Assembly: GCF_016899775.1 (NCBI RefSeq)
Contig: NZ_JACJJE010000007.1
Coordinates: 23,256 to 87,255 of the forward strand
Length of the DNA stretch: 64,000 nt
Reading direction: 5' to 3'
From: Pseudoflavonifractor capillosus
GTDB taxonomy: Bacteria > Bacillota > Clostridia > Oscillospirales > Oscillospiraceae
In this document: piece by piece, positions 31,026-63,160 of the stretch
How positions within the stretch are numbered: the first letter of the stretch is position 1
Layout of the letters: each line of letters begins with the position of its first letter
The notes under the pieces: model-generated
Databases searched by the model: none
Told to the model about the DNA's origin: nothing
The model's input: only the letters and a program-made list of their open reading frames with translations
Program-made: the position numbers and the translations under genes

Positions 31026-31061
31026 GTTTTGCCGATTTCTGCTTGTGATTGGCCGTAGTTA

Positions 31062-32372: not shown

Positions 32373-32402
32373 TGGAGCTCACCTCCCAACGGAATACAGC
32401 TG

Positions 32403-37981: not shown

Positions 37982-37982
37982 C

Positions 37983-38441
37983 TCACATTATTTGCTTTAG
38001 TCGTTCAGATTGCGGGACTCTTGGTTGAAGTTGCCGCAGTTTTGCCAGAGAAATAGGGCGCTGACCATTTTTCTGCATTTTCCCGCAATGCTCCCAGGCC
38101 AGTTTGCCGGGCCCGTTGTACTCCTCGGAAAAAGTGCCGTCTTTATGTATCTTCAGCACGAGCAGCCATTCCGGCTCACTGGAAATAGCAATACGATTAA
38201 TTTGTGTTGCTTTGATCTGAACCAGGCGTCCATCGGGGGCTTGTCCATCATGTGTTTTCTCCGATGCTTCGAATAGCTTTAGCCCATAGCAACAGGCTGC
38301 CAAAGCTTCACCAATACTCCCAATCATGTGGCCGTCTGGCGTATAGTGCCTTCCAGGAAACAGGCTTTCCAGTTCCTGAGATATGCTGTAAAGTATTTTT
38401 ATCTTTTCTGCAACTAAATCCTGTATCGCTGAACCGCTCAT
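37983..38441 (-). CDS. hypothetical protein (152 aa) within defense operon
   Basis: Overlaps both neighbours by 1-4 nt, so likely translationally coupled. No confident family. Confidence 0.4.
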   Translation of the reverse strand: MSGSAIQDLVAEKIKILYSISQELESLFPGRHYTPDGHMIGSIGEALAACCYGLKLFEASEKTHDGQAPDGRLVQIKATQINRIAISSEPEWLLVLKIHKDGTFSEEYNGPGKLAWEHCGKMQKNGQRPISLAKLRQLQPRVPQSERLKQIM

Positions 38442-38755
38442 CCCTGCACTTCCTTCAGCAAGATTTTCTTCTCAAATCCGCCCCGTTTGGCCGCTTTCTC
38501 TACCCGTACCTGCTCCAGTTCTTCCAATGTCCAGCCGCGGGCCTTTACGACAGCCTGCATGACCTCCAGAAGGTCGGCCAGTTCCTCCAGAGATTTGCTC
38601 TCCTGATACTCAGCCAGCTCCTCGTTCAGCTTCTGGTCCAGAAGGGAAAGATAGTCCTCGTCGGAAAGTTTTTCACAGACATATTTTTTCCCATCTGCTT
38701 CGATAATTTCCGGAATGCGATCCCGCACCAGTTTGTAATAGGCTTTAGTAGGCAT
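38438..38755 (-). CDS. MazG-like / HisE-like all-alpha nucleoside triphosphate pyrophosphohydrolase
   Basis: 105 aa; YKLVRDRIPEIIE...EELADLLEVMQAV is the MazG/NTP-PPase signature. Confidence 0.65.
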   Translation of the reverse strand: MPTKAYYKLVRDRIPEIIEADGKKYVCEKLSDEDYLSLLDQKLNEELAEYQESKSLEELADLLEVMQAVVKARGWTLEELEQVRVEKAAKRGGFEKKILLKEVQG

Positions 38756-39128
38756 CCTTTAGTCTCCTCAAAATCTCCTTATCCGCAGGGCAAAATGCGT
38801 ACTGATCAATTTCATCCACCGTAATCCAACGGATGTCATTATGCTCCAATTTCTGGGGGGTACCCTCACGGATGGTCGAATGAAACAGCGTCAGGTGAAC
38901 CGTTAGATCGGGGTATTCGTGAACCACATCCATGAACACCTCGCCCACATCCAGCGTGACTGCCAATTCTTCCTGACATTCCCGAATGAGCGCCTGCTCT
39001 TTTGTTTCTCCGGGCTCCACCTTACCTCCAACGAACTCCCAGAGAAGACCACGGGCCTTGTGTGCCGGGCGCTGGCAAATCATAAACTTGTCCTGATCCC
39101 AGATGAGGGCTGCTACTACTTCAGTCAT
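38745..39128 (-). CDS. NUDIX hydrolase (MutT-like (d)NTP pyrophosphohydrolase)
   Basis: Nudix box GGKVEPGETKEQALIRECQEELAV. Confidence 0.7.
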   Translation of the reverse strand: MTEVVAALIWDQDKFMICQRPAHKARGLLWEFVGGKVEPGETKEQALIRECQEELAVTLDVGEVFMDVVHEYPDLTVHLTLFHSTIREGTPQKLEHNDIRWITVDEIDQYAFCPADKEILRRLKDAY

Positions 39129-42100
39129 TTATCCCACCACCAATTTATTTGTTTTCTTCAAAAACTTCGCCGGAATTGGCCGGTCCAGCTTCCATGTGAT
39201 ATTCATGGGCCTACTCCCGTCATGCTTCACATAGTTTGCCGTTCCCAGGAAGGTATAGGCCGCGGCGCCTCCTGTGATCCGGTCCGCCTTGAATTCCCGA
39301 ACAAACAGCAGCACCTTGCTCCCTCGCTTCTGGTGATGGATATACCGCTGGCCGGTGGGAGAGTCCGCCGCCGTGGTGCTCTGGCTCTGCCAGTGGAACA
39401 GGTTTTCATTGATAGAATAATCGTGATACATGGTGGTGGGCGAATAGTCTTTATCTGCCTTATTCAGTGTCACAAAGAACACATCCAGTTGCTTTTCCGG
39501 CAACCACTTGACTCCCTCGCGTACTGTCGCCGGTTTCAAAAAATCCATCGCCACCAGTAGCTGATCCCGGGTATAGGTGCAGTGGAGGTCCAGTGGGCAG
39601 TCAAAACCCAGTTCCACTGGCTCGTCAATAAAATCAATCTGCTCGTATCGGTAGCGGAGCAGGTCCAGAAGCTCACCCAGCAGCACCGGGCTGTCTGAGA
39701 GGGCATACAGGTTGTCCAGCATCTCATCGGATGCCCAGCTCTCCGCCGCCTTGCTCCAAACAGTCACATAGAACATCTGGAGCATCCGCTGCTCCAGCTC
39801 GCCCATTGCCGCAAAGTCCACATCGTCCAGACGGAGCAGCAGGTCCAACAAAAAGTGAATCCAGCGCCGGGAGTCCACAACGGCCAACCGACCAAGGGCT
39901 TTTGTGAGCACCTCCTCCAGCGGTTCCCTGAAATCCGCAATCATATCCGCCCGGGCACAGATACGGGAGAAAGAAGAAAACTTGTAAATTGCCCTGGGGT
40001 CCAAGTGGTAATAGTCCAGGAAATTTGCCAGGGTCAGTTCCAAACCGCTATCTTCCGCAAAACTGGCCACTCGAGCCACCAAACCGGCGGTATTGCCATA
40101 GGAGGCGCGAATGTTATCCAGAATGTATTTGGCAGCCTTTTTCTCCAACTGTATGTAGCAGCCCTTAGGTGCGGAGACAAATCCGTCCTTGATCTCCCGT
40201 GTCACGCTGCGGGTAGTGTTAGACAGTAGGGCGGCAAACTTATCCTCAAAATTATACTTTTTATTGGCCTGGCCGATGAAGTCCAGCACCGTCAGGCACT
40301 CCTTATCCTCCGCAAGCCGCAGGCCACGGCCCAGCTGCTGGAGGAAGATGGTCAGGGACTCGGTGGGACGTAGGAACAGCACGGTGTTGACCTCAGGAAT
40401 GTCAACACCCTCGTTGTAGATGTCCACCACGAAGATGAAACGAATCTCGCCACTCACCAGCCGCCCTTTGGCGGCTTTTCTCTCCTCATCGGAGGATTTT
40501 CCAGTTAGAAAGATGGACGGAATCCCGTGATCGTTGAAATAGTGACACATAAACTCCGCATGCTCGATAGAAACACAGAAGCCCAGGCCCTTTACCTCAT
40601 CGATGTCGGTCACATACTTCAAGAGCGAGGACACCACCAGATCGGCGCGGCGATTGGCCACAGCTCCGCTGAGAGTGTATAGATTGGAAAGCTCTCCCTT
40701 ATCGTAGCCGCCGGCGCTCCACTTCAATGTGTTCAGATCCACTGTGTCGGTGACACCGAAATACTGGAAGGGACACAGCAACTTGCGGTCAATGGCTTCC
40801 GGCAGGCGAATTTCCGCGGCAATCCGGTTGTTGAAGTAGGGCAGTACACTTTTGCCGTCCATACGCTCTGGGGTAGCAGTCAGGCCCAGGAGAATTTGGG
40901 GCTGATAGTAGGACAGTAGCTTCTGATAGGTAGGCGCTGCCGCATGGTGGAACTCGTCTACAACGATGTAGTCATAAAAGTCCGGGGCAGTCTTGGCGGT
41001 GAAATCCTGAGAGTTGAAGGTCTGAATAGAAAGAAACAGGTGGTCGATACCCTCTGGACGGTAATTACCCACGAACAGCTCTCCAAAATTGGCGTCCTTC
41101 AGAACGGCTCGGAAGGTGTACAAGCTCTGTCGCAGGATCTCCTCCCGGTGAGCCACAAAGAGCAGCCGGCAGGGCTTTCCGGGGTGTTGCTTGCAAAAGC
41201 GCTTATAGTCCAGAGTGGAGATCACCGTCTTGCCAGTACCGGTGGCGGCCACCACCAGGTTGCGGGTATAGCCTCGAACGGTACGCTCCGCCTCCAGCTT
41301 GTCCAGAATTTCCTGCTGGTAGGAGTAGGGCGCGATATCCATGGTGTAGACTTCGGCGTTATTGGAATCGAAGTATTTTTCCGCCTTTAGTGCCCGGGCC
41401 AGCCGCTCCTTTTGATCCTCGGAGTAATACTCAAACTCGCTGGAATTCCAGTAGCTCCCGAAGGTGGCGGCAATCTTGTCGATGGTCTCCGGCAAATCCC
41501 TGCGGGTAACCTTCATATTCCATTCCAGACCGCTGGAGATGGCGGCGTTGGACAGGTTGGAGGAGCCTACATAGGCGGTGGTGAAGCCGGTATCCCGGTA
41601 GAAGACATAGGTCTTGGCGTGGAGCCGGGTGCGCTTGGTGTCGTAACTGACCTTGATTCTGGTGTTCGGTAATGTCCGGAGCTCCTCAATCGCCTTCACA
41701 TCGGTAGCTCCCATGTAGGAGGTGGTAATGATCCGCAGTTCTCCTCCGTTTTGGGTAAACTCCCGCAACTCATCCATCAGGAGGCGCAGGCCGCTCCATT
41801 TGATGAAGGACACCAGCATATCGATGCGGTCGGCGGAGACAATCTCCTTTTTCAACTCTGTGTACATCTGTGGCTCATGAATGGCCCCGGTAAACAGGCT
41901 GCTCTGGGCGATGGAGGTTTCCGGCCGGATCAGGTCGGCAGCCGTTTTGCCTACGGCCAGCCGGGGGTCCTGCTCCCGTAAAAGCGCAAGAAGCTGCTCT
42001 GCCCGCTGATCAACACTCAGCGTGGCAAAGTCAGCTTCTTGGGTTGTGTTCTGAATAAGGTCTACGATTTTATTGGCAAGACTGATCTGCGTGGAGATAT

Positions 42101-42284
42101 CTCCACCGTTGTCCAGTACGTTGTCCAGGCCCTTCTGTACCACATCCGCCAGATACTGCGCCAGTACTTTCGATGCCTCTGCCTTGTCAATGGGCGCAAC
42201 CGATTTGCGGGCGTCGGGAATCTCCGAAAGCTCGCGGTTCAGAGCGGTATTGATGACTTGTTCGTAAAGACCAGGTTGCAACAT
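39129..42284 (-). CDS. PLD-family nuclease + SF2 helicase (ResIII/Helicase_C) + C-terminal DUF3427 protein
   Basis: HKD motif RLHAKTYVF...GSSNLS; helicase motifs ATGTGKT, VVDEFHH, TATP. Long C-terminal domain. Probable start MLQPG at 42284 (the ORF extends to 42377). Confidence 0.65.
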   Translation of the reverse strand: MLQPGLYEQVINTALNRELSEIPDARKSVAPIDKAEASKVLAQYLADVVQKGLDNVLDNGGDISTQISLANKIVDLIQNTTQEADFATLSVDQRAEQLLALLREQDPRLAVGKTAADLIRPETSIAQSSLFTGAIHEPQMYTELKKEIVSADRIDMLVSFIKWSGLRLLMDELREFTQNGGELRIITTSYMGATDVKAIEELRTLPNTRIKVSYDTKRTRLHAKTYVFYRDTGFTTAYVGSSNLSNAAISSGLEWNMKVTRRDLPETIDKIAATFGSYWNSSEFEYYSEDQKERLARALKAEKYFDSNNAEVYTMDIAPYSYQQEILDKLEAERTVRGYTRNLVVAATGTGKTVISTLDYKRFCKQHPGKPCRLLFVAHREEILRQSLYTFRAVLKDANFGELFVGNYRPEGIDHLFLSIQTFNSQDFTAKTAPDFYDYIVVDEFHHAAAPTYQKLLSYYQPQILLGLTATPERMDGKSVLPYFNNRIAAEIRLPEAIDRKLLCPFQYFGVTDTVDLNTLKWSAGGYDKGELSNLYTLSGAVANRRADLVVSSLLKYVTDIDEVKGLGFCVSIEHAEFMCHYFNDHGIPSIFLTGKSSDEERKAAKGRLVSGEIRFIFVVDIYNEGVDIPEVNTVLFLRPTESLTIFLQQLGRGLRLAEDKECLTVLDFIGQANKKYNFEDKFAALLSNTTRSVTREIKDGFVSAPKGCYIQLEKKAAKYILDNIRASYGNTAGLVARVASFAEDSGLELTLANFLDYYHLDPRAIYKFSSFSRICARADMIADFREPLEEVLTKALGRLAVVDSRRWIHFLLDLLLRLDDVDFAAMGELEQRMLQMFYVTVWSKAAESWASDEMLDNLYALSDSPVLLGELLDLLRYRYEQIDFIDEPVELGFDCPLDLHCTYTRDQLLVAMDFLKPATVREGVKWLPEKQLDVFFVTLNKADKDYSPTTMYHDYSINENLFHWQSQSTTAADSPTGQRYIHHQKRGSKVLLFVREFKADRITGGAAAYTFLGTANYVKHDGSRPMNITWKLDRPIPAKFLKKTNKLVVG

Positions 42285-42391
42285 ATCAGTCACTCTTTCT
42301 ACGTGGTTATAGATAAAAAAATAGTGGCATATTTTGTATCCAGTATACCTGTATTTCCAGCATTCTACAAGCATCAATCACTCAGCACACC

Positions 42392-44947
42392 TTATGCGTC
42401 AAACAGGTATTCTTCCAACCCTTCTGCTAAGTGCAACGGGAGAGGGAGGACAAGCGACTGATTATATTGGATCGGAATATGGCGCAATGCGTTTGTATAA
42501 AAGACCCAATTTTCCGCTGTGTCACCTGGCTGCAGTTGCAGAGGGTACAGCTCAATCATGTCTTTTTCAGCAAACCGCTGCTTAGGATAATCAATTCTCG
42601 AAGCCTTGAAGCTACTTGTGTATTGGGGGTCATTGGGTTTCACATGGATACCCCAATATACATCACCGTATTGGAATATACCGGAGGAAGAAGTTAATTG
42701 CAGTCGTTCCTCAGTGGATTTTTTACTAAGATCTGTGTAATAGTCGGGGACTTCCTGATTGCTTCGAATTCGTATGATCCTCACTCCGGAATCCAGTAGA
42801 GACATTTTATACGGGCTTTTCGGCATTCCAACATTGATTTCCGTGGGGCAGTATGACTCTATCACATCATAGCATCCAATTTCTTTATCAGAAATTCCGC
42901 TCCACACCGCACGTGTAGTCCCATCGGATTGCACAACCAACAAAACGCTGTCCTCTTTGCTATAAAAATGATTTTTTAGTTCAATCAGCTTTTGCTTTGC
43001 AGGTACACGACTTGCTTCAACGCAACGTTGTTCCAGATTACTGTCCCAAAAAAGTTTGGCCATTTCCAGACAGGCTTCTCTATAAGAAACACCTCTTTTG
43101 GAAAAAGCATCACAATAAACTCTTGTTTTCCCTTCAGGGATATTCACGGTGACACACAGAGGGAGAAACCGTGCTTTATTGGCAATACCATGAACCTGTG
43201 TGCAAAGATGCATCCCAACACAAGGGGTATTGGCCAGCGGTGGGAGCTCCTTGCTCGGATTCAGCAAAGTAACAACCCCCAGCTGACGATAGAGGTCATA
43301 TACGGCATTTTGAATTTTGCTGTACCCTTCATTTTCTTCTGGAGTTATAAATTGTACCACACGGCCTGTCTGGGCAAACGCATTCCGAATCACCCGCTTG
43401 GGATCCCCTCCTTTGGAATACTGATCCTGGCCGGGTAAGACAAACATACACGCAGTTACAACATCAGTTTTACCAATCGTGGCTGCCATCTCATCGCAAT
43501 ATCGGATTTTCGTTTCTTTTCTATCATCTGGCATGGCGTCGGTCAAGTTTCCAACCTCTTTACATATACAGCAAATTTGCAGGCAGGATGTCGGAGTATT
43601 GGGGCCAAAGTCCTGTTCAATCTTGTCTTGGATTTGACGCAACAGCTCTTGCTGCACAGGATCTTGCCACATGCCATAAATTTCAAAATTGATTTCGTCT
43701 GTCTCAACGCACTTCTTCACCCACTGGCGAAATTCTTCTGAACTCGAATATTCCTGTGGATTACGAAGACATGAAAAATTTTGTCCCCTACGGGAGATAC
43801 GCGTTGCCTCGGGCTGCTCCAATACCATATCGCAATCTTGCAGCAGACCAAAGATCGATTGGTGCAGGGAAGCCTTATCCACCACCGAAACGCCGGTTCC
43901 AATTTTGGATTCCTTTATTCCCCACATACCATTTTTATAAGGGAGGAGAATATGGGCGGCATATGCTGGTGGATCCATCATAACATCTTCGGCAGACGGC
44001 AACGCCTCATATCCCCAAATGTTATAACATTCCTTATCCTGTTTCTTCCAGTCTACCTTTTTAGAGGTGTAGTTGTACGCAATCTGAACCTGACAGTATT
44101 TGTCTTCCCCAACTTTAATATGAGCATTGATATTTTCTTTCAAAATTGGTGCACGATCTTTTTTCAAAGCATCAGGGACCCATCGCCGAATACTCATTTG
44201 GCATAAAAGTAGAGCCTTTCTCTGCGGAGGAGTGGTTTGCACAGAAAAATCGAACACAAAAGAATATTGATGCTGACTATTCGGATCGGACAGCGGACGG
44301 CTGATCAGCTGATTTTTGGTAGCGCAGCATAGCCGGAGCGCTTGACCATGCAGAATAATCTCTTTCCCCAGCAAGTGATTGATTGCCAAAAGCGGAACCG
44401 CTTGATACGCTTCTTCACTCACAGTGCCATTTTCAAAGGTGAGGCAGACTGTTGCGCTGCTTTGAAGTGGTAAAAATGCATCCGGTTTGATTTCTTTGCA
44501 AAAATCAGAGGCCAATTTTTTGACCAGTAAAGCCATTGGAGAAGCACGGAACGATGTCACATAAGTTCCTTTCACCCAAACCTTAATCAGTTCGCAAAGA
44601 GCTTGTATATCTTTCTCAGAATAGGGGGAGCAGGAAGTCAGCCACCGATCATCAATGCTGCCTTTTTTTAGTGGCGCCAAGGCAATAACACCCTCCATCC
44701 AGCTTTCTACCAGTTTTTTTAACGCATTTGTGGGAAGGCCATATTCATCCTTGAAACGCGGGTTATTTTTGCGCGCTATCTCCAGCAACGCCTCTTTCCA
44801 GTGTTCTGGAAACCCAAGGTAATAAAGGGTACAGCTTTGACTTGGAGCAAGTGTATATGCCAAAGGATAAATTTTATTGTTCATAGGATATATCCTTTCT
44901 GTAAGCTTGATAGAAGGGGGCATAAAGTGTTTTAGCAATTTCTGCAC
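42392..44947 (-). CDS. large uncharacterised protein, candidate pPIWI-RE-like (PIWI/RNase-H-fold) partner of helicase and nuclease
   Basis: 851 aa, last gene of the three-gene operon. No clear catalytic tetrad seen by eye. Alternative starts at 44923 and 44884. Confidence 0.3.
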   Translation of the reverse strand: MQKLLKHFMPPSIKLTERIYPMNNKIYPLAYTLAPSQSCTLYYLGFPEHWKEALLEIARKNNPRFKDEYGLPTNALKKLVESWMEGVIALAPLKKGSIDDRWLTSCSPYSEKDIQALCELIKVWVKGTYVTSFRASPMALLVKKLASDFCKEIKPDAFLPLQSSATVCLTFENGTVSEEAYQAVPLLAINHLLGKEIILHGQALRLCCATKNQLISRPLSDPNSQHQYSFVFDFSVQTTPPQRKALLLCQMSIRRWVPDALKKDRAPILKENINAHIKVGEDKYCQVQIAYNYTSKKVDWKKQDKECYNIWGYEALPSAEDVMMDPPAYAAHILLPYKNGMWGIKESKIGTGVSVVDKASLHQSIFGLLQDCDMVLEQPEATRISRRGQNFSCLRNPQEYSSSEEFRQWVKKCVETDEINFEIYGMWQDPVQQELLRQIQDKIEQDFGPNTPTSCLQICCICKEVGNLTDAMPDDRKETKIRYCDEMAATIGKTDVVTACMFVLPGQDQYSKGGDPKRVIRNAFAQTGRVVQFITPEENEGYSKIQNAVYDLYRQLGVVTLLNPSKELPPLANTPCVGMHLCTQVHGIANKARFLPLCVTVNIPEGKTRVYCDAFSKRGVSYREACLEMAKLFWDSNLEQRCVEASRVPAKQKLIELKNHFYSKEDSVLLVVQSDGTTRAVWSGISDKEIGCYDVIESYCPTEINVGMPKSPYKMSLLDSGVRIIRIRSNQEVPDYYTDLSKKSTEERLQLTSSSGIFQYGDVYWGIHVKPNDPQYTSSFKASRIDYPKQRFAEKDMIELYPLQLQPGDTAENWVFYTNALRHIPIQYNQSLVLPLPLHLAEGLEEYLFDA

Positions 44948-47900
44948 TTCCTTTTTGTGTCATCAGTTCTTCCAGGTACTGACCCAGTTCAGAAAGGCAG
45001 TCAAAATCCTCTGCTTTTTCAGGGCGGCGGCGAAATGCACCGTCAATAAAGTAGACATGCGGCGCAGGTCTGCTTACATCCGTAACGCGTGCCAATCGAC
45101 CGAAAATCTGCAAAATCAGTACGAAAAGGGTAGCGACTACATCTTTTCTCTCGTCCTCACTCAGTTCTGCAATGCCAAATGCCTTAGTCTTACTCATTTT
45201 GTTCCATTGCCGTGCAGCAAACTGGCGAATTCGTGCATTATATGCAAACAGAGATTCTTGAGGTTCTCGTTTACAATGGGATTCTACGAGTCCGTTCAGT
45301 TTACTGCCCTTCTGCTGAATATCGTCCGGAACAGCCATGGGCCGAACCATGAAAAACACGGCCGAAAGTGCAGAATGTCCATATTCATCTACAATGTTGT
45401 GTCCACGCTCAATTGCCATTGCAGGCGCAATTAAGATATCTGCATTCAACTGCGCAAAGCGACTGACCTCTCCACGCCGGACGGTGTCTTCGCCGCTGGG
45501 AGCATTAATAGCATCGGCAATCATACGACAAGTACGTGCCGAACAGTTTGCTTTTCGTAAAGCGGTTTCCAGTGTCTGCTGTACTTCCAACGCCTGTGCA
45601 TAACTATTGACAACCAGCAAAATTTTCCCGGCCTTGCGTTTATATTCGCTGATAATCAAGTCAACGGCCTTTTGCGTAGCAGCACGCAATTGTGCCACTC
45701 TCTGATCATCTCCAGCACCGGAGATGCGTTCAAGAAAACCGGACTCAAAGAAGCGCGTTTTTTCCAAGAACACTCTTTTTTCGGCATCTGCTTCCAAAAT
45801 GTAGTTCACAGGCCTATTGACATGGTACTCATAAGAACCTTCTGCCCAGCTGGAACCGGACAAGAGGATCACATGGGGACCGGCAGGATTTCCATGTTGA
45901 TCCGTCCTTAAATAGGGCAAGTCCTTCATCAGGCTTCTTCCAAAGGCAAATTGGCGGAACAAAATGATATCTTCCTCATCCGTTTTCTTCAGCCCAAACA
46001 AGTTGCCGCACAACGCAGAGGGAAGAAAATGCTGTTGCTGCCGGAAACGAGTTTGCAAAAAACCAAACAGCTCATTCTGCCCATAGGAAGTCTCATGACT
46101 GGCCTCATACGCATCACTCAGCCCACGAATAAAGTGGTCGAAGTAAATTAATCGCAAAATCAGTTTGATCCGGGCATCCTGGATCTTCCTCGCTTTATTT
46201 TTCTCAGGTCGTGGGAAAGTCTCACCGAGTTCCGTCAACCACAATTGATACATCCGATCAAAGAAAAACTCATCAGTACTCTTGCAGGAACTGTCCAGTA
46301 CCGCCCACAAGGTGCTTTGCCGAATTCTCTCCTCGTCCTGCATATCAATCAAGTTATAAATTGCCTGATAAACGGCATGCGGAATCTTAAATTCCGTTTC
46401 TGTCTGATATAGATCATCCAACAAAGTGAGGGCAGAAAACGGATCACCATACGTGATTTTTCTCCATGCTCCCAGTTCATGGTGCAGGGACTTTACAATG
46501 CAGCTTAGTACCGTAACACTTTGGCGTTGCATCTCATCATATCGCTGTGCAGCTAAATTCTCTTCCCGATGCTTACTACTTAATTTCATATATGCACTGC
46601 AGTCTTCGGCGCACTCGCGAATATAGTTATTAAAGCTGGTTTCCGGCATGAAGAAATGATCCAGTGTTTTCTGAACCCGGTCACTTTCGTCAAACACAAC
46701 CAAGTCAAAATCACGCATTGCCAATTCCAGAAAAGTTTCCCGTGCAGTACCGACCCGCGACGCTGCAAAGCCTGCAACTGTTGTGACTACCACCGAAGCC
46801 GTATAACAGTCTCGAAGCATTTTTGTTCCTGAACACTGCTCAAAATATGGGCAAAGATAATGCTGATTGCCTTTTTTGAGCGAATAGCATGGCTCTTTAC
46901 CAAAGACAATCGCTGCATCATGTTGTTCATCCATTCCATCAATCAGACAAGCAGGCGTTAAGTATTGAGAATATGAAGCAGACAAACAAATTTCATCTGG
47001 TTGTGAGACTTGGTTGATATATTTCATCCTCTCGCTGCGGCCAATCAGATGACTTGCCGCAACTCCGAGGGAGGATAAATATTTTTGCAAGCTTAACGTC
47101 TCAGCGACCGTGTCGACAACCACAGCCATACGCAGACCATGTTGATGGAACCAGAAGGACAACACCTTGATCAATGTTGATTTACCTGCACCCACCATAC
47201 CTACCATGTTGACCACTTCACGGATTGTAAGTTCCGAACATGGTTGAACAGTGAAGCCGTTAACTTCCTTCAGAATATTTGTCTTAAGAATTGTGAAGCA
47301 AGGATCTCCTGGGCATATTTCAGCCATCTTTTCCGCAGTACTCAACAGCTCTTTAATGGAAATTGTGATAGGGGGTCGGCAATTTTTTTCAACTGGCATC
47401 GACGATGCAGTATCTACTCCTGCACAATTCAGTTTGACACGAACAGTTTCGGAATCCCCACTTTCAAAACTGTACATATAGCGGTAGGTTCCACTTTCCG
47501 CATAAGTGGGCGCCTTTAAATCTTCAACGCGCTCCGGCCAAAAGCGTACCCATTCCTTTGCTCGTTCTTCATACGGATATGGATATGGCCCGATTGCTTT
47601 CGAGAAAGATCGTTTCTCATCCACTTGTTGAATGGAAAATGCGCGAACTGCATCGTAACGCTTCTTTCGATATTCTCGCAAGTCATCCTGCCAATACTTT
47701 TGAGAGCGATAATATCCGAGTTTGGATCGAGCCTGCTGCAGCGTGTGTTCTATATCAGAACATTGAGTTGTGCCAATCAGTTGATACTGCGTAAATAAAA
47801 GATATGCTTTTGTCGGATCGGCATCCGGTGCGGTTAAACTCAGTAAATATAAAACTGCCTCAATAGCCGCAAAGCGAGACAGTGGCATGGCTTCTTCGAT

Positions 47901-47957
47901 GAGCTGAAACTGAGCAGAAAGAGGTGCATACCAGGTATTCCGATCATTATTCTTCAT
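44874..47957 (-). CDS. DinG/Rad3-like SF2 helicase with Fe-S-type cysteine cluster (1027 aa)
   Basis: Walker A VGMVGAGKST and Walker B DLVVFDESD. Four cysteines (C...C...CPYFEQC) lie between them, as in XPD/DinG helicases. Overlaps the upstream gene by 11 nt. Confidence 0.5.
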   Translation of the reverse strand: MKNNDRNTWYAPLSAQFQLIEEAMPLSRFAAIEAVLYLLSLTAPDADPTKAYLLFTQYQLIGTTQCSDIEHTLQQARSKLGYYRSQKYWQDDLREYRKKRYDAVRAFSIQQVDEKRSFSKAIGPYPYPYEERAKEWVRFWPERVEDLKAPTYAESGTYRYMYSFESGDSETVRVKLNCAGVDTASSMPVEKNCRPPITISIKELLSTAEKMAEICPGDPCFTILKTNILKEVNGFTVQPCSELTIREVVNMVGMVGAGKSTLIKVLSFWFHQHGLRMAVVVDTVAETLSLQKYLSSLGVAASHLIGRSERMKYINQVSQPDEICLSASYSQYLTPACLIDGMDEQHDAAIVFGKEPCYSLKKGNQHYLCPYFEQCSGTKMLRDCYTASVVVTTVAGFAASRVGTARETFLELAMRDFDLVVFDESDRVQKTLDHFFMPETSFNNYIRECAEDCSAYMKLSSKHREENLAAQRYDEMQRQSVTVLSCIVKSLHHELGAWRKITYGDPFSALTLLDDLYQTETEFKIPHAVYQAIYNLIDMQDEERIRQSTLWAVLDSSCKSTDEFFFDRMYQLWLTELGETFPRPEKNKARKIQDARIKLILRLIYFDHFIRGLSDAYEASHETSYGQNELFGFLQTRFRQQQHFLPSALCGNLFGLKKTDEEDIILFRQFAFGRSLMKDLPYLRTDQHGNPAGPHVILLSGSSWAEGSYEYHVNRPVNYILEADAEKRVFLEKTRFFESGFLERISGAGDDQRVAQLRAATQKAVDLIISEYKRKAGKILLVVNSYAQALEVQQTLETALRKANCSARTCRMIADAINAPSGEDTVRRGEVSRFAQLNADILIAPAMAIERGHNIVDEYGHSALSAVFFMVRPMAVPDDIQQKGSKLNGLVESHCKREPQESLFAYNARIRQFAARQWNKMSKTKAFGIAELSEDERKDVVATLFVLILQIFGRLARVTDVSRPAPHVYFIDGAFRRRPEKAEDFDCLSELGQYLEELMTQKGSAEIAKTLYAPFYQAYRKDISYEQ

Positions 47958-49074
47958 GGCACGCAGCCTCCTTTTTACTGATTTCAGACTTTAAGGCCCT
48001 CAATGTCACACACATTACATTTTCCTGGTTCTTCAAAGCGCGGTTGATAATCGTAGTGTAGTTTTTCTGATTTGCCGTGTATTCATTGGGAATTACATAA
48101 TATCCTCTCGCATAATCCCCTGTAGGGAAGCCATTGTCGTTCAGAATTTTTGTTCGCAGCGCAATTGGATTTCGATACGCTTTCGCATCAATTTCCCACA
48201 CCTCTCCATCAGAAAATTGAATCTCTACATCATATCGATCCAGTTGAGGCCACAGCACCCAGTGAATGTTTTTCTTTTGGCAGAACGCAACGATATCAAG
48301 TTCCAGTTTGCCAGGCGCTGCAAAGTACCGCATGATACCTTTTTTCAAACGATAAAGCCCGCCACCAGAAGCATCCAGTTTCATATCATCGGTCAGATTT
48401 GGGATTGTGTCCACACAGTGAGATGAATGACAGATATATCCGTACTTCCCATATGTCATGGTCCATCCACAGCAGGGACATCGATAACTGTCCTCCCAAA
48501 TTTCTTCATACGCAAATTGAAATGCCTCCATAGCAGCTGGATCATCAGCCAATTCCAATGACATGGCTCGTCGCTCATCAATAGATATGATTGGATGCTC
48601 AATGATGTATCTTCTGATCCGACAGTAAATTTCTTGCCCTAAAACAATGATTTTCTCATAAAGGACACGTTCGTCGGTTCCGTCCATGATATCATTGTCC
48701 TGGGATTCCAAATACTCATAGCATTCAGAACTGGGACTATACAAATTTCCACTCCGTTGATACGCTAACGCCCCATAACTATAAAATGGCTCTTCTTTTA
48801 AGTTTAAAGAATCGATTCCATTGGGATCCCATTTATCAAACCATTCAAAAACAGGCTTGGTAATAAAAAATTTCAGGAACGCAGCCTCGTCCGCATATTG
48901 TGTTATATCCTGCATGCCACCAATTTGATGGCTTGCAGCTAAAAACATATTTATGCCATGCTGCAATGCTTTACTGTAAGGATACCGTGTAGGTTCTTTT
49001 TGTAAAAGCTGCTCCTTCTCCACTAATCCTTTCGCAATTAGCGCAAATGTTTTCCGCAAAAATATCGCATCCAT
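47947..49074 (-). CDS. Zn-finger + PD-(D/E)xK (REase-fold) nuclease candidate
   Basis: CPCCGWTMTYGKYGYICHSSHC zinc ribbon. C-terminal DIVAF...DVEIQFSDGEVWEIDAKAY (D..E.K pattern). RBS GGAGG before MDAIF at 49074. Confidence 0.45.
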   Translation of the reverse strand: MDAIFLRKTFALIAKGLVEKEQLLQKEPTRYPYSKALQHGINMFLAASHQIGGMQDITQYADEAAFLKFFITKPVFEWFDKWDPNGIDSLNLKEEPFYSYGALAYQRSGNLYSPSSECYEYLESQDNDIMDGTDERVLYEKIIVLGQEIYCRIRRYIIEHPIISIDERRAMSLELADDPAAMEAFQFAYEEIWEDSYRCPCCGWTMTYGKYGYICHSSHCVDTIPNLTDDMKLDASGGGLYRLKKGIMRYFAAPGKLELDIVAFCQKKNIHWVLWPQLDRYDVEIQFSDGEVWEIDAKAYRNPIALRTKILNDNGFPTGDYARGYYVIPNEYTANQKNYTTIINRALKNQENVMCVTLRALKSEISKKEAACHEE

Positions 49075-49443
49075 ACAGAGGCCTCCTGCCTTAGACAAAA
49101 ATAAAACGGTTCTCTTGTGCGTACAAGAGAACCGTCGATAGTTACAATAACTCAGCCTAAGCATATATATCACCCTAAGGTAATGACATGCAGTAGGCTC
49201 TACCATCTTTACTTTTCTCGTGTACGCTCTTAGTATATATACAATATCCAGGTGCTGTCAAGAGCAAATTTTTATTGGTTGAAACCATGGGCTGCATATC
49301 CTGACCAATACTTATGCCGGATTACCTCACCTTACAAATTAAGAACTTTTTATAATATTGCAGACACATCCCGACGATGTACAATAAAAGCGTAGGATAA
49401 AAACACTTGCAAATCTGATAAGTAGAAACTGAGTGATGCAGAT

Positions 49444-50516: not shown

Positions 50517-51045
50517 GCGCATAGATCGGCGTTATATCACCTTTAAATCAATTTTTGCTCAGATGAATGATTTTTTGCAAATTGTATAAAACTGACCATC
50601 CATTGCATATCTGGATAATTTGTCTGACGCTTATGAATCCTGACACAAATTAAATTCCGCCAAACACCTTATGCTGCAATGGATTCTGGCGATTTTCCGT
50701 CTCGAAATATTGGCGTAGATTTTTATAGAGATGTATGGTATCTTGATAGGCCTTAGCCTGGTGAGTGGGCATGTCCGACAGAAGGAGACCTTGGATTGGA
50801 TCCACCAGATCTGCCGTTCCACTGGCATGTTCTGAAAGCAAAGTCAATACCTCGGACAACAATACTATGCAAAATGCATAGTATTGTTGCGGATTGATGC
50901 CTGTGATAAAATACAAAATGACCAACAAAGATGAAAAATTAGGAGTTGATTGTGATATTGCACCCTATATTTCATAAGAATGCTTTATGTCAAATTGTAT
51001 GAATGAATCAATTTGACACGGCGAGAAAGGATGGAGGAAATAAGA

Positions 51046-53565
51046 ATGGCCATTATCAAATGCAAAATGTGCGGCGGGGACCTGGAGATCACCGAGGGCG
51101 TGACTGTGGCCGAGTGCGAGTACTGCGGCACCAAGCAGACAGTTCCCAGTGCGGACAGTGAGAAAAAAACTAGCCTGTTCCTGCGGGCCAACAAACTGCG
51201 GTTCGACTGTGACTTTGACCGGGCGGCAAACATTTACGACAGCATTATCACCGACTTTCCGGCGGAGCCGGAGGCCTACTGGGGCCTTCTGCTGTGCAAA
51301 TATGGCATTGAGTACGTAGACGACCCGGCCACCGGGAAGAAGGTGCCCACCTGCCACCGCTCCTCCTATGAGTCCGTCCTGGAGGACGAGAACCTGGAGA
51401 AGGTGATGGAGTACGCCGACGCGGTGGCCCGGCGGGTGTATCGGGACGAGGCCAAGGCCATCGAGGACATCCGAAAGGGGATACTGGAGGTCTCCGGCAA
51501 GGAACCGCCCTACGACATCTTCATCTGTTACAAGGAGACCGACGAGAGCGGGGAGCGCACGGTGGACAGTGTGCTGGCCCAGGACGTGTATGACGCCCTG
51601 ACAGAGAAGGGCTACCGGGTGTTTTTCTCCCGCATTACTTTGGAGGACAAGCTGGGCACTCAGTACGAGCCCTACATCTTTGCCGCCCTGAACAGCGCGA
51701 AAATCATGCTGGTGTTCGGCACCGACTATGAGTATTTCAACGCCGTGTGGGTGAAGAACGAGTGGAGCCGCTTTCTGAAGCTGATGGCCCAGGACAAGAG
51801 CAAGCATCTGATCCCCTGCTACAAGGATGTGGACGCCTACGACATGCCCAAGGAGTTCCAGAAGCTCCAGGGCCAGGACATGGGCAAGGTGGGAGCCGTG
51901 CAGGACCTCCTCCGGGGCATCGACAAGCTGCTGGGGAAAGGCACAGCGGCGCAGGCTGCTGCTCCAGCTCAAGCCGCAGGCGGCCCCACGGTGGATAGTT
52001 TGCTGAAGCGGGCACAAATGTTCCTGGAGGATGGAAACTGGGACAGCGCCAACGAGTACTTCGACAAGGTGCTGGACATCGCCCCTGAGAGCGCCGAGGC
52101 CTATGTGGGCAAGTTCTGTGCGGAACGAAAGTACCATCAAATTTCCGAGGTTGCTGAAGATAGTGATGCTTTTTCCGGACAGGTATCCACACTGTGGGAA
52201 CGAGCGTTGGAGTTTGCCACACCAGAGCTATATACAGTACTGAAAGAATATCAGGCTGCATCAGAAAAGATAACACATCGGAAAGCACAGCAGGAGAATG
52301 CTGCCAGACAGGAAACCGAAAAGAGATTGGCAGCAATCCGACCTTATGCACAAGGCCTTCTCGCCGCTTCAGAGGCTTATGTTACTGTAGGTTTGGGTTC
52401 CGATGGCAGGGTGGCCGCAGTAGGCCCTAATACTTACGGACAATGCAATGTCTCGTACTGGAAGGATATTATAGCGGTCTGCACTGGAGGCCGCCATACG
52501 GTAGGCCTGAGAGCAGACGGCACGGTGGTTGCGGTAGGTAAAGACGGACAGTGCAGAGTTTCGGACTGGAGGGATATTGTAGCTATTTGCGCCGGGAATG
52601 ATCACACAATAGGTCTGAGGTCAGATGGTACAGTGGTTGCGGTTGGAACTAGCTTGCGGGATCAGTGTAATGTCTCTGGCTGGAAAAATATTGTGGCTAT
52701 CTGCGCCGGAGATGAGCATACGGTAGGTCTAAGAGGGGACGGCACGGTAGTCGCAGTGGGCAATAATAATTGCGGACAGTGTAATGTCTCAAGCTGGAAA
52801 GATATTACAGCTATTTGCGCTAGAGATTCCCACACAATAGGTCTGAGAGCAGACGGAACAGTGGTTGCAGTGGGAAGTAATGTTCCCGGGAGCTACAACG
52901 TCCCGGCCTGGACAGATATTGTAATGGTCTGCACTGGAAACTCTCATACAGTAGGACTGAAGGCAGACGGAACAGTAGTCGCAGCTGGCAATAATCATTG
53001 CGGACAGTGCAATGTCTCTGACTGGAAAAATATTGTAGCTATCTGCGCCGGAGGCTTCCACACGATAGGCCTGCAAGCGGACGGCAAGGTAGTCGTGGCG
53101 GGCAATAATAGCCAGGGCGAATGTAATGTCTCGGACTGGTGTAATATTGTAGCGATCTGCGCCGGAGGCTTCCACACGATAGGCCTGCAAGCGGACGGCA
53201 AGGTAGTCGCGGTGGGCAGTAATAGCTATGGCGAATGTAATGTATCGGATTGGCAGTTGTTTAGCAGCGTCGAAACATTGAAGGCAGAGCGGACAGCTCT
53301 CCGCCAGAGGAGAGAAGAAGCCCGTCAAAAGGATGAGCAGCACCGCAAAGAAAAGCAGCGCTGGGAAGAGGAACAGCGCCGTCATGAAGAGGAGCGCCGC
53401 CGCAGAGAAGAGGAACAGCGCACCCAGCACCGAAATGCGCTGGAGGATGAGCGCACCCGGCTGCAAGCGGAATTGCCCACAATCAAGGGCCTGTTCTCCG
53501 GCGGCAAGCGCAGGCAGGTGGAGGCCCGGCTGGCGGAGATTGAGGCGGAACTGAAAAAGCTGTAA
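51046..53565 (+). CDS. Zn-ribbon / TPR-like / TIR-domain / TPR / RCC1-like beta-propeller-repeat / coiled-coil protein, paralog A
   Basis: MAIIKCKMCGG...CEYCGT zinc ribbon. TIR-like DIFICYKETDESGERTVDSV...KIMLVFGTDYEYFNAVWVKNEWSRF. About 11 repeats of GxxHTxGLxxDGTVVAVGxNxxGQCNVSxWKxI. C-terminal LKGLFSGGKRRQVEARLAEIEAELKKL. RBS GGAGG before ATG 51046. Confidence 0.7.
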   Translation: MAIIKCKMCGGDLEITEGVTVAECEYCGTKQTVPSADSEKKTSLFLRANKLRFDCDFDRAANIYDSIITDFPAEPEAYWGLLLCKYGIEYVDDPATGKKVPTCHRSSYESVLEDENLEKVMEYADAVARRVYRDEAKAIEDIRKGILEVSGKEPPYDIFICYKETDESGERTVDSVLAQDVYDALTEKGYRVFFSRITLEDKLGTQYEPYIFAALNSAKIMLVFGTDYEYFNAVWVKNEWSRFLKLMAQDKSKHLIPCYKDVDAYDMPKEFQKLQGQDMGKVGAVQDLLRGIDKLLGKGTAAQAAAPAQAAGGPTVDSLLKRAQMFLEDGNWDSANEYFDKVLDIAPESAEAYVGKFCAERKYHQISEVAEDSDAFSGQVSTLWERALEFATPELYTVLKEYQAASEKITHRKAQQENAARQETEKRLAAIRPYAQGLLAASEAYVTVGLGSDGRVAAVGPNTYGQCNVSYWKDIIAVCTGGRHTVGLRADGTVVAVGKDGQCRVSDWRDIVAICAGNDHTIGLRSDGTVVAVGTSLRDQCNVSGWKNIVAICAGDEHTVGLRGDGTVVAVGNNNCGQCNVSSWKDITAICARDSHTIGLRADGTVVAVGSNVPGSYNVPAWTDIVMVCTGNSHTVGLKADGTVVAAGNNHCGQCNVSDWKNIVAICAGGFHTIGLQADGKVVVAGNNSQGECNVSDWCNIVAICAGGFHTIGLQADGKVVAVGSNSYGECNVSDWQLFSSVETLKAERTALRQRREEARQKDEQHRKEKQRWEEEQRRHEEERRRREEEQRTQHRNALEDERTRLQAELPTIKGLFSGGKRRQVEARLAEIEAELKKL

Positions 53566-53580
53566 GAGAGGGAGTATACT

Positions 53581-56226
53581 ATGGCAATCATCAAATGTAA
53601 AATGTGCGGCGGCGATTTGAACGTCACCGAGGGTATGACCGTAGCCGAGTGCGAATACTGCGGCACCAAGCAGACGGTCCCCAGTGTGGACAGTGAGAAG
53701 AAACTGACCCTGTTCAGCCGGGCCAACCGGCTGAGGCTGGCCGGTGAGTTCGACAAGGCTGCCGGGGTCTATGAGAGCATTGTGGCGGAGTTTCCGGAGG
53801 AGGCCGAGGCATACTGGGGCCTGGTGCTTTGTAAATACGGCATTGAATATGTGGACGACCCGACCACCGGAAAGAAAGTGCCTACCTGCCACCGCTCTTC
53901 CTTTAACAGTATCCTCAAGGACAGCGACTTTGAGCAGGCCTGCGAAAACGCGGACACAGTGGCCCGGCGGGTCTACCGAGACGAGGCCAAGGCCATCGAG
54001 GACATCCGCAAGGGGATTTTGGAGGTCTCCGGCAAGGAGCCGCCCTACGACATCTTCATCTGCTACAAGGAGACGGATGAAAATGGGGAGCGCACGGTGG
54101 ACAGCGTGCTGGCCCAGGATGTGTACGACGCCCTGACCGAGAAGGGCTACCGGGTGTTTTTCTCCCGGATCACCCTGGAGGACAAGCTGGGCGCCGAGTA
54201 CGAGCCGTACATCTTCGCCGCCCTGAACAGCGCGAAAATTATGTTGGTATTCGGCACGGACTACGAGTATTTCAACGCCGTGTGGGTGAAAAACGAGTGG
54301 AGCCGGTACTTAAAGCTGATGGCCCAGGACAAGAGCAAGCATCTGATCCCCTGCTACAGGGATGTGGATGCCTATGACATGCCAGAGGAGTTCCAGAAGC
54401 TCCAGGGCCAGGATATGGGCAAGGTGGGGGCTGTCCAGGATCTGCTGCGGGGTATCGAAAAACTGCTGGGGAAGGACGCAGCTGCTCAAACGGATTCAAC
54501 CTCTCCGGCCCAGGCAGCAGGGGGACCCACAGTGGAGTCCCTGATGAAGCGGGGACAGCTCTTCCTGGAGAGCGGGGATTGGGACAGCGCCAATGAGTAC
54601 TTCGATAAGGTGCTGGACATTGCCCCCGAGAGCGCCGAGGCCTATGTGGGCAAGTACTGCGCGGAGCGGAAGTACCGGGATTTCTCCTTCATGCGCCTGG
54701 ACCATGGTGACCAGCTGTACGCGAAAGGAATCCTGCACCTGTGGAATCTGACACAAAAAAAGGAGTTCGACCGGGCAAAAACATTTTACCAAGATGTAAC
54801 CGGCGCGGATCAGACCGGAGCGCAGCAGTTTTTGGGTATGCTGCTGGGAATGGAAAAGCTGGACATAAGTGCCGTGATCCCGGATCCCACTGCAACTTCC
54901 CGGAATTTCACGCTGGCCCTGCGCTTCGCCTCGCCGGAGCTGCGGACCCAACTGGAGGAGGCCCGGGACGCGTTCCGGCAGAACCGGGAGAAGCACATCC
55001 AGGAAGTGGAGCGGGAAATCGCGGATGCCGAGCAAGCCGAGAGAGACGCCGCAGAGGAACAAAAGCGGGCCAAAGAGCAGAAAAAAATTCAAGAAGCGGA
55101 GGAGAAAAAGGCCCACGCGGAGCTGCTTCGCACCCGGCGGGAGCTGGCCCGCAGGTTCAGTAAGCGCATCGCCGCGGGCGCGGGTTTTGTTGTGGCCTTA
55201 AAGCTGGACGGTACCCCCTTAGTGGCCGGGGCCAGCCGGTTTGGGGCGGCCGATTTGTCCGGATGGAAGGATCTGACGGCGGTTTCCGCCGGGCTTTACC
55301 ACACGGTGGGCCTGCGCTCAAACGGTACGGTGGTGGCCACAAAGTACACCAAAAAAGAGAAGTATAACCCCTCCAATGACTCCTTCTGCCAGGTGTCCCA
55401 TTGGAGGAATATCGTGGACATCTCCGCCGCAACTACCTCCACCGTGGGCATCAAGGCGGACGGAACGGCGGTCTGGACCGGGCAGGACCTCCCCTATGCG
55501 GGGGACCTGCCAGATGCGGGGAATTGGAAGGACTTTGTGGACTTTGCGGCCACACGCATCCCTACAATTGATGACAAGACCGGCACGCTGATCGGGCTGA
55601 AATCCGACGGAACGGTTGTGGACAGCGGCTATTTTTCCCAAAAGTATCCCGTCATGTGGAACGCGGGGCTGACGCTGGCCTTCAAAAACGTGGCCATGTC
55701 GGCCAGCACCTATCATGCGGTCTTTTTAAAGGAAAATGGTCTGGTCCTTCCCATCGGTGACTCGAGCAGCGCCGCATGTCAGGTCAGGGACTGGCAGGAT
55801 ATTGTGCAGGTCTGTGCCACAGGGGATAGTTCTGTTACCTATGGCCTGAAAGCAGATGGAACGATGGTGGCGACGAAAGATCCCAGTCCGTACGTACATG
55901 AGGAACGCGAGGTACTCAAGTGGAAGGATATTATTGCCTTCTCTGCGAATGGCGGTTGGGTCGTAGGCCTGAAGTCGGATGGCACCCTGGTCTCCACCAG
56001 TGAACAGCTGCAGGAGATGATCGGCTCTTGGAAACTGTTTGACAGTCTGGATACGATAGAGCAGGAATTGGCAGAGGTCCAGGCCAAGCGCAAGGCCGCT
56101 CTGGAAAAGGAGCGGGACGACCTTCAGGCGGAGCTGCCCAACCTGAAGGGGTTCTTCTCCGGCGGCAAACGCCGGGAGATGGAGGCTAGGATTGCAGAGA
56201 TTGAGGAAGAACTGAAGAAGCTGTAA
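53581..56226 (+). CDS. Zn-ribbon / TIR-domain / TPR / beta-propeller-repeat / coiled-coil protein, paralog B
   Basis: N-terminal 300 aa ~88% identical to paralog A. Divergent repeat region. Same C-terminal LKGFFSGGKRR...ELKKL motif. Confidence 0.7.
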   Translation: MAIIKCKMCGGDLNVTEGMTVAECEYCGTKQTVPSVDSEKKLTLFSRANRLRLAGEFDKAAGVYESIVAEFPEEAEAYWGLVLCKYGIEYVDDPTTGKKVPTCHRSSFNSILKDSDFEQACENADTVARRVYRDEAKAIEDIRKGILEVSGKEPPYDIFICYKETDENGERTVDSVLAQDVYDALTEKGYRVFFSRITLEDKLGAEYEPYIFAALNSAKIMLVFGTDYEYFNAVWVKNEWSRYLKLMAQDKSKHLIPCYRDVDAYDMPEEFQKLQGQDMGKVGAVQDLLRGIEKLLGKDAAAQTDSTSPAQAAGGPTVESLMKRGQLFLESGDWDSANEYFDKVLDIAPESAEAYVGKYCAERKYRDFSFMRLDHGDQLYAKGILHLWNLTQKKEFDRAKTFYQDVTGADQTGAQQFLGMLLGMEKLDISAVIPDPTATSRNFTLALRFASPELRTQLEEARDAFRQNREKHIQEVEREIADAEQAERDAAEEQKRAKEQKKIQEAEEKKAHAELLRTRRELARRFSKRIAAGAGFVVALKLDGTPLVAGASRFGAADLSGWKDLTAVSAGLYHTVGLRSNGTVVATKYTKKEKYNPSNDSFCQVSHWRNIVDISAATTSTVGIKADGTAVWTGQDLPYAGDLPDAGNWKDFVDFAATRIPTIDDKTGTLIGLKSDGTVVDSGYFSQKYPVMWNAGLTLAFKNVAMSASTYHAVFLKENGLVLPIGDSSSAACQVRDWQDIVQVCATGDSSVTYGLKADGTMVATKDPSPYVHEEREVLKWKDIIAFSANGGWVVGLKSDGTLVSTSEQLQEMIGSWKLFDSLDTIEQELAEVQAKRKAALEKERDDLQAELPNLKGFFSGGKRREMEARIAEIEEELKKL

Positions 56227-56256
56227 CGATCCTTACAATAAAGGAGAGCGCATAAA

Positions 56257-61253: not shown

Positions 61254-61255
61254 AG

Positions 61256-63157: not shown

Positions 63158-63160
63158 CAG

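Follow-up and report, generated by a model that had tools for sequence, protein, structure and literature searches.

What kind of system is encoded by the three long genes on the minus strand of a 64,000-nt stretch of the Pseudoflavonifractor capillosus contig NZ_JACJJE010000007.1 (positions 23,256 to 87,255 of the forward strand; hereafter the window), would it restrict invading DNA, and how might its expression be controlled? A first reading made from the DNA letters alone (the sequence-only reading) had likened the cluster to the pPIWI-RE operons, which combine a restriction endonuclease (REase)-fold nuclease, a DinG-type helicase and a PIWI-like protein. All three genes match the Pfam and PADLOC models for this triad, and the operon is a real member of an already catalogued family, known since 2013 and present for years in both databases. 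We consider it rather probable that the locus is a complete pPIWI-RE system in which a non-slicing, guide-loaded PIWI sensor recruits the helicase and nuclease to invader DNA, with expression gated by an RNA leader upstream of the first gene.

Three long, co-directional open reading frames (ORFs) were called on the minus strand at 47947..49206, 44874..47957 and 42392..44947, with longest-ORF lengths of 419, 1027 and 851 aa, respectively, in the places given by the sequence-only reading. These are not chance ORFs, given that hundreds of homologues, and significant matches to protein families, were found for each. The REase gene most likely starts at the ATG at 49074, as had been proposed, giving 375 aa, because 8 nt upstream of it stands AGGAGG, the homologues measure 370-377 aa, and the tblastn alignments all begin at that Met. 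The PIWI gene most likely starts at the ATG at 44884, giving 830 aa, because its homologues are 824-830 aa long. The 419-aa and 851-aa longest ORFs were rejected as real genes on the grounds of homologue lengths, ribosome-binding site (RBS) positions, and the presence of a terminator inside the 419-aa extension. With these starts, both gene junctions are 11-nt overlaps (ATGA…TAA type), implying translational coupling; the 11 nt claimed for the first two genes is correct, and of the 11-74 nt claimed for the last two the lower figure stands, while the 851 aa claimed for the large protein should probably be reduced to 830. The locus is GC-poor (~0.45 across 42-50 kb versus 0.52-0.65 in most of the window). 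The genes and the first RBS are as follows.

47947..49074, minus strand: gene 1, REase-fold nuclease, 375 aa (Pfam, PADLOC, conserved motifs)
49082..49087, minus strand: AGGAGG, RBS of gene 1
44874..47957, minus strand: gene 2, XPD/DinG-family superfamily 2 (SF2) helicase, 1027 aa (Pfam, PADLOC, Foldseek, Cys conservation), 11-nt overlap with gene 1
42392..44884, minus strand: gene 3, pPIWI-RE protein, 830 aa, 11-nt overlap with gene 2

The product of gene 3 had been called a PIWI candidate of otherwise unknown fold, and that suspicion proved well founded. It matches pPIWI_RE_X (PF13111) at 1.6e-35, MID_pPIWI_RE (PF18157) at 2.2e-15 and RNaseH_pPIWI_RE (PF13032) at 1.4e-22, all above the Pfam gathering scores, and PADLOC PprPIWI at 2.8e-89. 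An AlphaFold2 model was built from an alignment of 71 sequences, these being diverse representatives of 50%-identity clusters, and reached a mean predicted local distance difference test score (pLDDT) of 95.2 and a predicted template modelling score (pTM) of 0.93. Its Foldseek matches in the Protein Data Bank (PDB) are full-length Argonaute and PIWI structures (EfPiwi, 1e-16; CbAgo, 2e-16; MIWI; KpAgo; hAgo2), aligned over ~900 columns at ~10% identity. The fold of the modelled protein is Argonaute-like throughout, its MID pocket for the 5' end is intact, and the MID, PIWI and N-terminal lobes are arranged as in long Argonautes. The family alignment agrees: the pocket residues D494, P495, K496, R500, R508, Q511, F512 and R533 are invariant or nearly so. 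The domains lie as follows.

43763..44860, minus strand: N-terminal X region of PIWI-RE
43262..43501, minus strand: MID domain of PIWI-RE, with conserved D494-P-K496, R500, R508, Q511-F512 and R533
42395..43222, minus strand: PIWI/RNase H domain of PIWI-RE

The conserved R and E for which the family is named, and for which the sequence-only reading had advised looking, are also present. E778 is invariant (71/71), and R705 and R707 are each found in 68 of the 71 sequences; going by the spacing, the name-giving pair is probably E778 with one or other of these arginines. The RNase H fold of the model also contains the extra α-helix that in this family follows the first three-stranded meander, here strands 555-565, 570-581 and 586-590, then helix 601-611 with the near-invariant Y601. 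Canonical Argonaute catalytic motifs are GxDV, RDG and PxYYAH. The corresponding positions map to G557-M-H559-L in strand β1, S-D654-G after β4, and P-L-H818-L-A near the C-terminus, a predicted tetrad of H559, D654 and H818 with His in place of the first Asp; no conserved Glu-finger residue was found. An RNase-H-like tetrad had not been made out by eye in the sequence-only reading because it is incomplete, with His at the first Asp position; two of its residues do appear to be there. Across the 71 representatives, the first position is most often H (20), W (16) or Y (13); just three have D there, and all of these also carry D654 and H818. The complete DEDX tetrad of a slicing Argonaute thus appears to be lacking, and because the first catalytic Asp is replaced, the window protein is probably no slicer.

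Gene 2 had been described as a helicase with Walker A and B motifs and, between them, a four-Cys cluster as in XPD and DinG, and the motifs, the Cys conservation and Foldseek all uphold that description. The protein matches pPIWI_RE_Z (PF18155) at 6.7e-12 in Pfam and PprDinG at 9.3e-96 in PADLOC, and NCBI/UniRef holds an identical protein from Pseudoflavonifractor capillosus, annotated as "pPIWI_RE_Z domain-containing protein". A profile search against DinG succeeded with the PADLOC model, but none of the Pfam or NCBIfam DinG models reached its cut-off, and residues 369-482 matched the NCBIfam DinG-family helicase YoaA weakly. Six Cys lie between Walker A and B and are invariant in the close clade, while four of them, C337, C357, C369 and C375, are retained in homologues of just 26-38% identity; their spacing and position are as expected for an XPD/DinG 4Fe-4S domain, and they would presumably bind metal.

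47175..47201, minus strand: Walker A, GMVGAGKST, residues 253-261 (G253-T261)
46680..46691, minus strand: DESD (D423-D426) of Walker B FDESD, residues 422-426
46833..46949, minus strand: C337/C357/C369/C375, putative 4Fe-4S ligands, conserved

The top 16 Foldseek PDB matches of an AlphaFold2 model of the helicase are all XPD, DinG, CasDinG, TFIIH-XPD or DdmD; they include T. acidophilum XPD (5e-7), CasDinG 7xf0 (1.7e-6), S. aureus DinG, E. coli DinG, human XPD in TFIIH and, at rank 10, V. cholerae DdmD. The features tested for XPD/DinG relatives (the four Cys between Walker A and B, an Arch-type helical insertion and an XPD-like fold) could all be recognized in sequence or model, and gene 2 has the make-up expected of a pPIWI-RE helicase, namely a DinG-clade SF2 enzyme that has a Z domain at its N-terminus and carries two inserts, one Cys-rich and one helical.

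Gene 1 encodes the nuclease, for which a zinc finger and a PD-(D/E)xK-like C-terminus had been suggested. It matches pPIWI_RE_REase (PF18154) at 2.7e-19 in Pfam and PprRE at 6.3e-21 in PADLOC, and its helical N-terminal region has a weak, below-cut-off match to pPIWI_RE_Y (PF18156; E = 0.0044). The Zn ribbon and the nuclease core were both found and are kept down to relatives of ~26% identity, and on this conservation the nuclease is predicted to be active.

48415..48480, minus strand: conserved Zn ribbon of REase, C199-x2-C202 … C215-x4-C220
48181..48303, minus strand: conserved PD-(D/E)xK core of REase, E258…D279/D282…D296-A-K298

The REase has neither a partner methyltransferase nor an evident sequence-specificity domain, and no helix-turn-helix (HTH) domain was detected in it. 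PDB sequences gave no meaningful matches, either by phmmer with each of the three proteins or with the 71-sequence PIWI profile, and no solved pPIWI-RE structure is therefore detectable by sequence.

The three genes travel together. The order REase-DinG-PIWI, with abutting genes, is kept in 19/19 genome loci with enough upstream sequence, and three distant relatives (PIWI identity 26-35%) carry the same triad. Close PIWI homologues occur in Vescimonas, Flintibacter, Agathobaculum, Acutalibacteraceae and other gut Clostridia, and the family is rare, with 409 clusters at 50% identity among 1.84 billion representatives (E ≤ 1e-3). No relative of the PIWI protein was found in IMG/VR viral contigs, and megablast of the operon gave no matches in complete E. 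coli genomes or PLSDB plasmids. The downstream neighbours vary from locus to locus and include type I restriction-modification (R-M) in V. fastidiosa, HEPN, Fic, integrase-like genes, toxin genes and others; the triad is therefore the functional unit. In the window itself, a defence island runs from ~20 kb onward; McrBC, two type IV-like restriction enzymes, TIR proteins and integrases are encoded there. One genome locus (L025:360-3220) carries a degraded triad, with matches to a truncated REase, to helicase residues 1-387 (40% identity) and to PIWI residues 738-830 only, a pattern suggestive of a system that has decayed or been rearranged.

The DNA upstream of gene 1 is organized as a promoter and a leader (5' untranslated region) ending in an intrinsic terminator.

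49232..49261, minus strand: sigma-70/SigA-type promoter, TTGACA-18 nt-TATACT, 11/12 consensus positions, -10 ~6 nt before the 5' motif
49075..49226, minus strand: leader of ~150 nt, with a near-invariant 5' end, a variable central hairpin and the linker AUUGUA
49225..49212, minus strand: leader 5' end GUACACGAGAAAAG, almost invariant, 14 nt
49095..49136, minus strand: intrinsic terminator upstream of the first gene, a perfect 14-bp stem plus U-tract, core UCUCUUGUAC/…CAAGAGA
L003:5620-5812, L136:2760-2915 and L135:2680-2825: leader elements elsewhere, upstream of pPIWI-RE REase genes in Clostridia

The leader RNA folds far better than its shuffled versions (z = -5.1). A TTGACA/TATAAT promoter at the matching place, and the full leader layout, each recur in 18/19 related genome loci, at protein identities of only 44-79%. 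The common arrangement begins with the consensus promoter, the almost invariant GTACACGAGAAAAG ~6 nt past the -10, with which the transcript would start, and the variable central hairpin, and continues with the ATTGTA linker, the terminator core CTCTTGTAC…CAAGAG, the U-tract, the RBS and the ATG. The terminator stem covaries: 97.9% of the cells in the alignment are paired, compensatory changes occur in 5/11 pairs, and the covariation score is 0.473 versus 0.163 in shuffles (0/500), slid controls being only 43-54% paired. The sole locus of the 19 in which the leader is replaced by unrelated sequence (L014:3550-3790) has a different GC-rich hairpin and a U-rich tract, still preceding the REase RBS.

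Searching metagenomes with a two-part leader pattern matched 107 stretches, 100 of which had at least 300 nt downstream; a pPIWI-RE REase gene follows immediately in 89 of these 100. The other 11 (7 distinct sequences) were rejected as extra leader contexts, as they are without the hairpin and look like chance matches. Rfam has no family for the leader and returned only noise (whole window scanned at gathering thresholds, leader at E ≤ 10), and the sections consulted of the 2013 pPIWI-RE paper make no mention of a conserved leader or terminator (PMC3702460). The element appears to be undescribed.

The 5' motif is complementary to the 5' arm of the terminator, with nine pairs around one mismatch, and 99.3% of cells are pairable. 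Three substitutions occur in the arm, and none conflicts with pairing to the 5' end: two give G-U and the third falls on the mismatch. The energies of the duplex between 5' end and arm are better than those of shuffles (z -1.7 to -6.5), including in the divergent L135 and L136. In L136 (35% PIWI identity), TGTACACGAAAAAT pairs with the apical part of its own terminator, and in L135 (27% PIWI identity) an unrelated 5' end pairs with the 3' arm of the terminator (-20.3 kcal/mol, z = -6.5); the still more distant L137 (26% PIWI identity) has no such leader element. From these sequences, we read the leader as a transcription attenuator with a mutually exclusive, candidate antiterminator.

How the parts would work together is proposed as follows, starting from what was observed of the triad: its family membership, folds, motifs, operon structure, conservation and context. 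The strong promoter would drive transcription into the leader, where the terminator would be pre-empted when its 5' arm pairs with the invariant 5' end of the transcript. PIWI-RE, probably non-slicing, would be the sensor, loading a short guide through its MID pocket and binding invader nucleic acid that is complementary to the guide, probably in an RNA/DNA hybrid or an R- or D-loop. Recognition would recruit or license the 5'-3' Fe-S helicase, which would translocate on the displaced strand, and the PD-(D/E)xK REase, recruited likewise, would cut the DNA. Restriction of invading DNA is proposed on context, that is, the defence island, the low GC and the patchy distribution. The proposal takes up the R-loop restriction model of Burroughs for pPIWI-RE (PMC3702460), brought up to date by the analogous DdmDE, in which an inactive prokaryotic Argonaute (pAgo), DdmE, with DNA as its guide, loads the XPD-like helicase-nuclease DdmD onto the displaced strand (bioRxiv 10.1101/2024.05.10.593530).

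Several points weigh against this proposal. We infer the kind and source of the guide, the contacts between the proteins and the sequence of events, and the literature searched contained no paper testing any pPIWI-RE triad for phage or plasmid defence. The sole phenotype reported for a family member comes from a P. stutzeri piwi-re knock-out, which is ~15-fold more sensitive to ciprofloxacin and forms filaments (PMC10991935); ciprofloxacin sensitivity points to replication or repair rather than defence. The tetrad was mapped by sequence alignment, model secondary structure and canonical Argonaute motifs, not by coordinate superposition, and the His that replaces the first Asp might still allow a metal to bind. 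The helicase model, built from 27 sequences with the alignment seeded by a distant helicase, is of moderate quality (pLDDT 71.5, pTM 0.70). Lastly, the antiterminator pairing shows no covariation; because both partners are nearly invariant, covariation cannot test it.

Two other functions of the triad must be set beside targeted restriction. Recognition by PIWI-RE could instead unleash the REase and helicase on host and invader DNA alike, leading to cell death or arrest, as with short pAgo and long-B pAgo-nuclease systems. Such abortive infection would suit a PIWI protein that, like the sensor pAgos of abortive systems, is probably slicer-inactive, and inactive pAgo systems are usually put in this class in a review-type classification; it would also suit a nuclease with neither a partner methyltransferase nor an evident specificity domain, and tight attenuation by the leader terminator would fit a toxic effector. 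However, DdmDE, the closest analogue by parts (XPD-like helicase, PD-(D/E)xK nuclease, inactive pAgo), degrades plasmid and the cell is not killed (bioRxiv 10.1101/2024.05.10.593530), and targeted degradation is where a processive helicase is more usually found, so that we regard abortive infection as rather unlikely. It is very unlikely, in our view, that the triad is instead a housekeeping device, resolving R-loops, replication-transcription conflicts or topological problems of the host and restricting no foreign DNA. The knock-out phenotypes of P. stutzeri (PMC10991935) speak for such a role, as does the action of DinG-family helicases on R-loops (PMC3702460), but ciprofloxacin phenotypes are known from a review for other pAgos that act in defence. 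Housekeeping also sits badly with so patchy a distribution (the 409 clusters above), with a low-GC locus in a defence island next to integrases, and with variable, defence-rich neighbours elsewhere (type I R-M, HEPN, Fic, toxin genes).

The leader, too, can be read otherwise. Its repeats might be two DNA operator sites for a repressor, TGTACA-CGAGA at +1 and an inverted copy in the hairpin, with the hairpin itself incidental. The 5' motif and terminator arm are indeed inverted repeats at the DNA level, with a palindromic TGTACA core, and N-terminal HTH domains on some REases of the family are proposed to be autoregulators (PMC3702460); the window REase, though, has no detected HTH. Moreover, a U-tract follows the hairpin in every locus, the stem changes are compensatory or G-U, as is typical of RNA, none of the three arm substitutions is at odds with RNA pairing to the 5' end, and L135 keeps the pairing logic with unrelated sequence. 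Operators are distinctly unlikely on this evidence, and attenuation by an RNA is preferred. A bolder idea, which we hold to be a long shot, is that the leader is a new structured regulatory RNA class dedicated to pPIWI-RE, a terminator/antiterminator switch with GUACACGAGAAAAG read by a component of the system, for example in the MID pocket of PIWI-RE. If that were true, PIWI-RE would set the expression of its own operon, or the terminated RNA of ~125 nt would act in trans with the complex.

The rest of the island includes a tight co-directional defence array downstream of the triad.

28287-42377, minus strand: tight co-directional defence array, with an SF1 helicase+DUF2726 protein (MkoA/C-like), McrC and a 1093-aa McrB-like AAA protein
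28287-42377, minus strand, further members of the same array: REase_MTES-like+ResIII helicase, DUF6998, 105-aa ORF, NUDIX, and a PLD+ResIII+DUF3427 type IV enzyme

The last of these genes (39129..42377) starts 15 nt past the PIWI stop and may, in this strain, share a transcript with the triad; it was rejected as a fourth component, as the neighbours differ in every other locus. On the plus strand at 51013-58809 are three tandem paralogues of 850, 881 and 850 aa, TPR-TIR-TPR-RCC1-repeat proteins that match no PADLOC model; beside the triad, they may form a TIR-based defence array not yet catalogued. They are followed at 59244-63856 (plus strand) by an SPFH/Band-7 protein with a C-terminal zinc ribbon and then by ORFs of 642 and 231 aa, neither of which has a Pfam or PADLOC match. 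Two adjacent tyrosine recombinase genes (20160-22944, minus strand) are the probable left edge of the island, and 1-20 kb holds housekeeping genes (LarA, FAD oxidase, M20 peptidases, MCRA oleate hydratase, CotH).

As an experimental subject, the window locus is a compact, intact triad from a mesophilic human-gut anaerobe, with a high-confidence PIWI model and clear mutational targets. The predicted non-slicing PIWI sharpens the question of whether a DdmDE-like sensor Argonaute hands DNA to a helicase and a nuclease. The leader, with its covarying terminator and invariant 5' end, is tightly associated with these operons in Clostridia and is a concrete, testable regulatory element, which could explain the silencing of a methylase-less nuclease system; because it appears not to have been described and is easily tested, it raises the interest of an otherwise modest finding.

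Among known systems, DdmDE of Vibrio cholerae, to which a comparison had been advised, resembles the window locus in its parts, but the locus is no member: helicase and PD-(D/E)xK nuclease are fused in DdmD whereas the window nuclease is separate, the window helicase has kept its Cys, and by structure the PIWI protein stands nearer to Argonautes other than DdmE. The window helicase shares its fold and the four Cys between Walker A and B with type IV CRISPR CasDinG and with bacterial DinG/XPD but differs in its long C-terminal region and in the Z domain added at the N-terminus, and it is partnered with a PIWI protein instead of a Cascade-like complex.

The sequence-only reading had held the pPIWI-RE family to be known only from computational prediction. 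That is outdated: PsPIWI-RE of Pseudomonas stutzeri, encoded next to a DinG helicase and a nuclease, was characterized by knock-out and in vitro by Huang et al. (2022, PMC10991935) and is the only family member so studied. It takes guides with either a 5'-P or a 5'-OH, and its activity is confined to hybrid pairs, an RNA guide with a DNA target or a DNA guide with an RNA target (PMC10991935). The two proteins belong to the same family, from hosts of different phyla; in PsPIWI-RE, which cleaves targets, both catalytic Asp (D525, D610) are present, whereas the window protein, with H559 at the first position, probably does not cleave. The 2013 paper states that only a subset of pPIWI-RE proteins retains catalytic residues (PMC3702460), and the predicted H-D-H tetrad agrees with this, again making a slicer improbable. 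With the three-gene pPIWI-RE systems themselves (Burroughs, Iyer & Aravind 2013; PF13111/PF18157/PF13032/PF18154/PF18155/PF18156; PADLOC PprRE/PprDinG/PprPIWI) the locus shares the three protein families, the gene order, overlapping termini, the lack of a methyltransferase and the conserved R and E. All testable defining features of the triad were found, the Y-domain match being weak and below cut-off, and there is no essential difference, the window locus belonging to the majority subset without a full catalytic tetrad.

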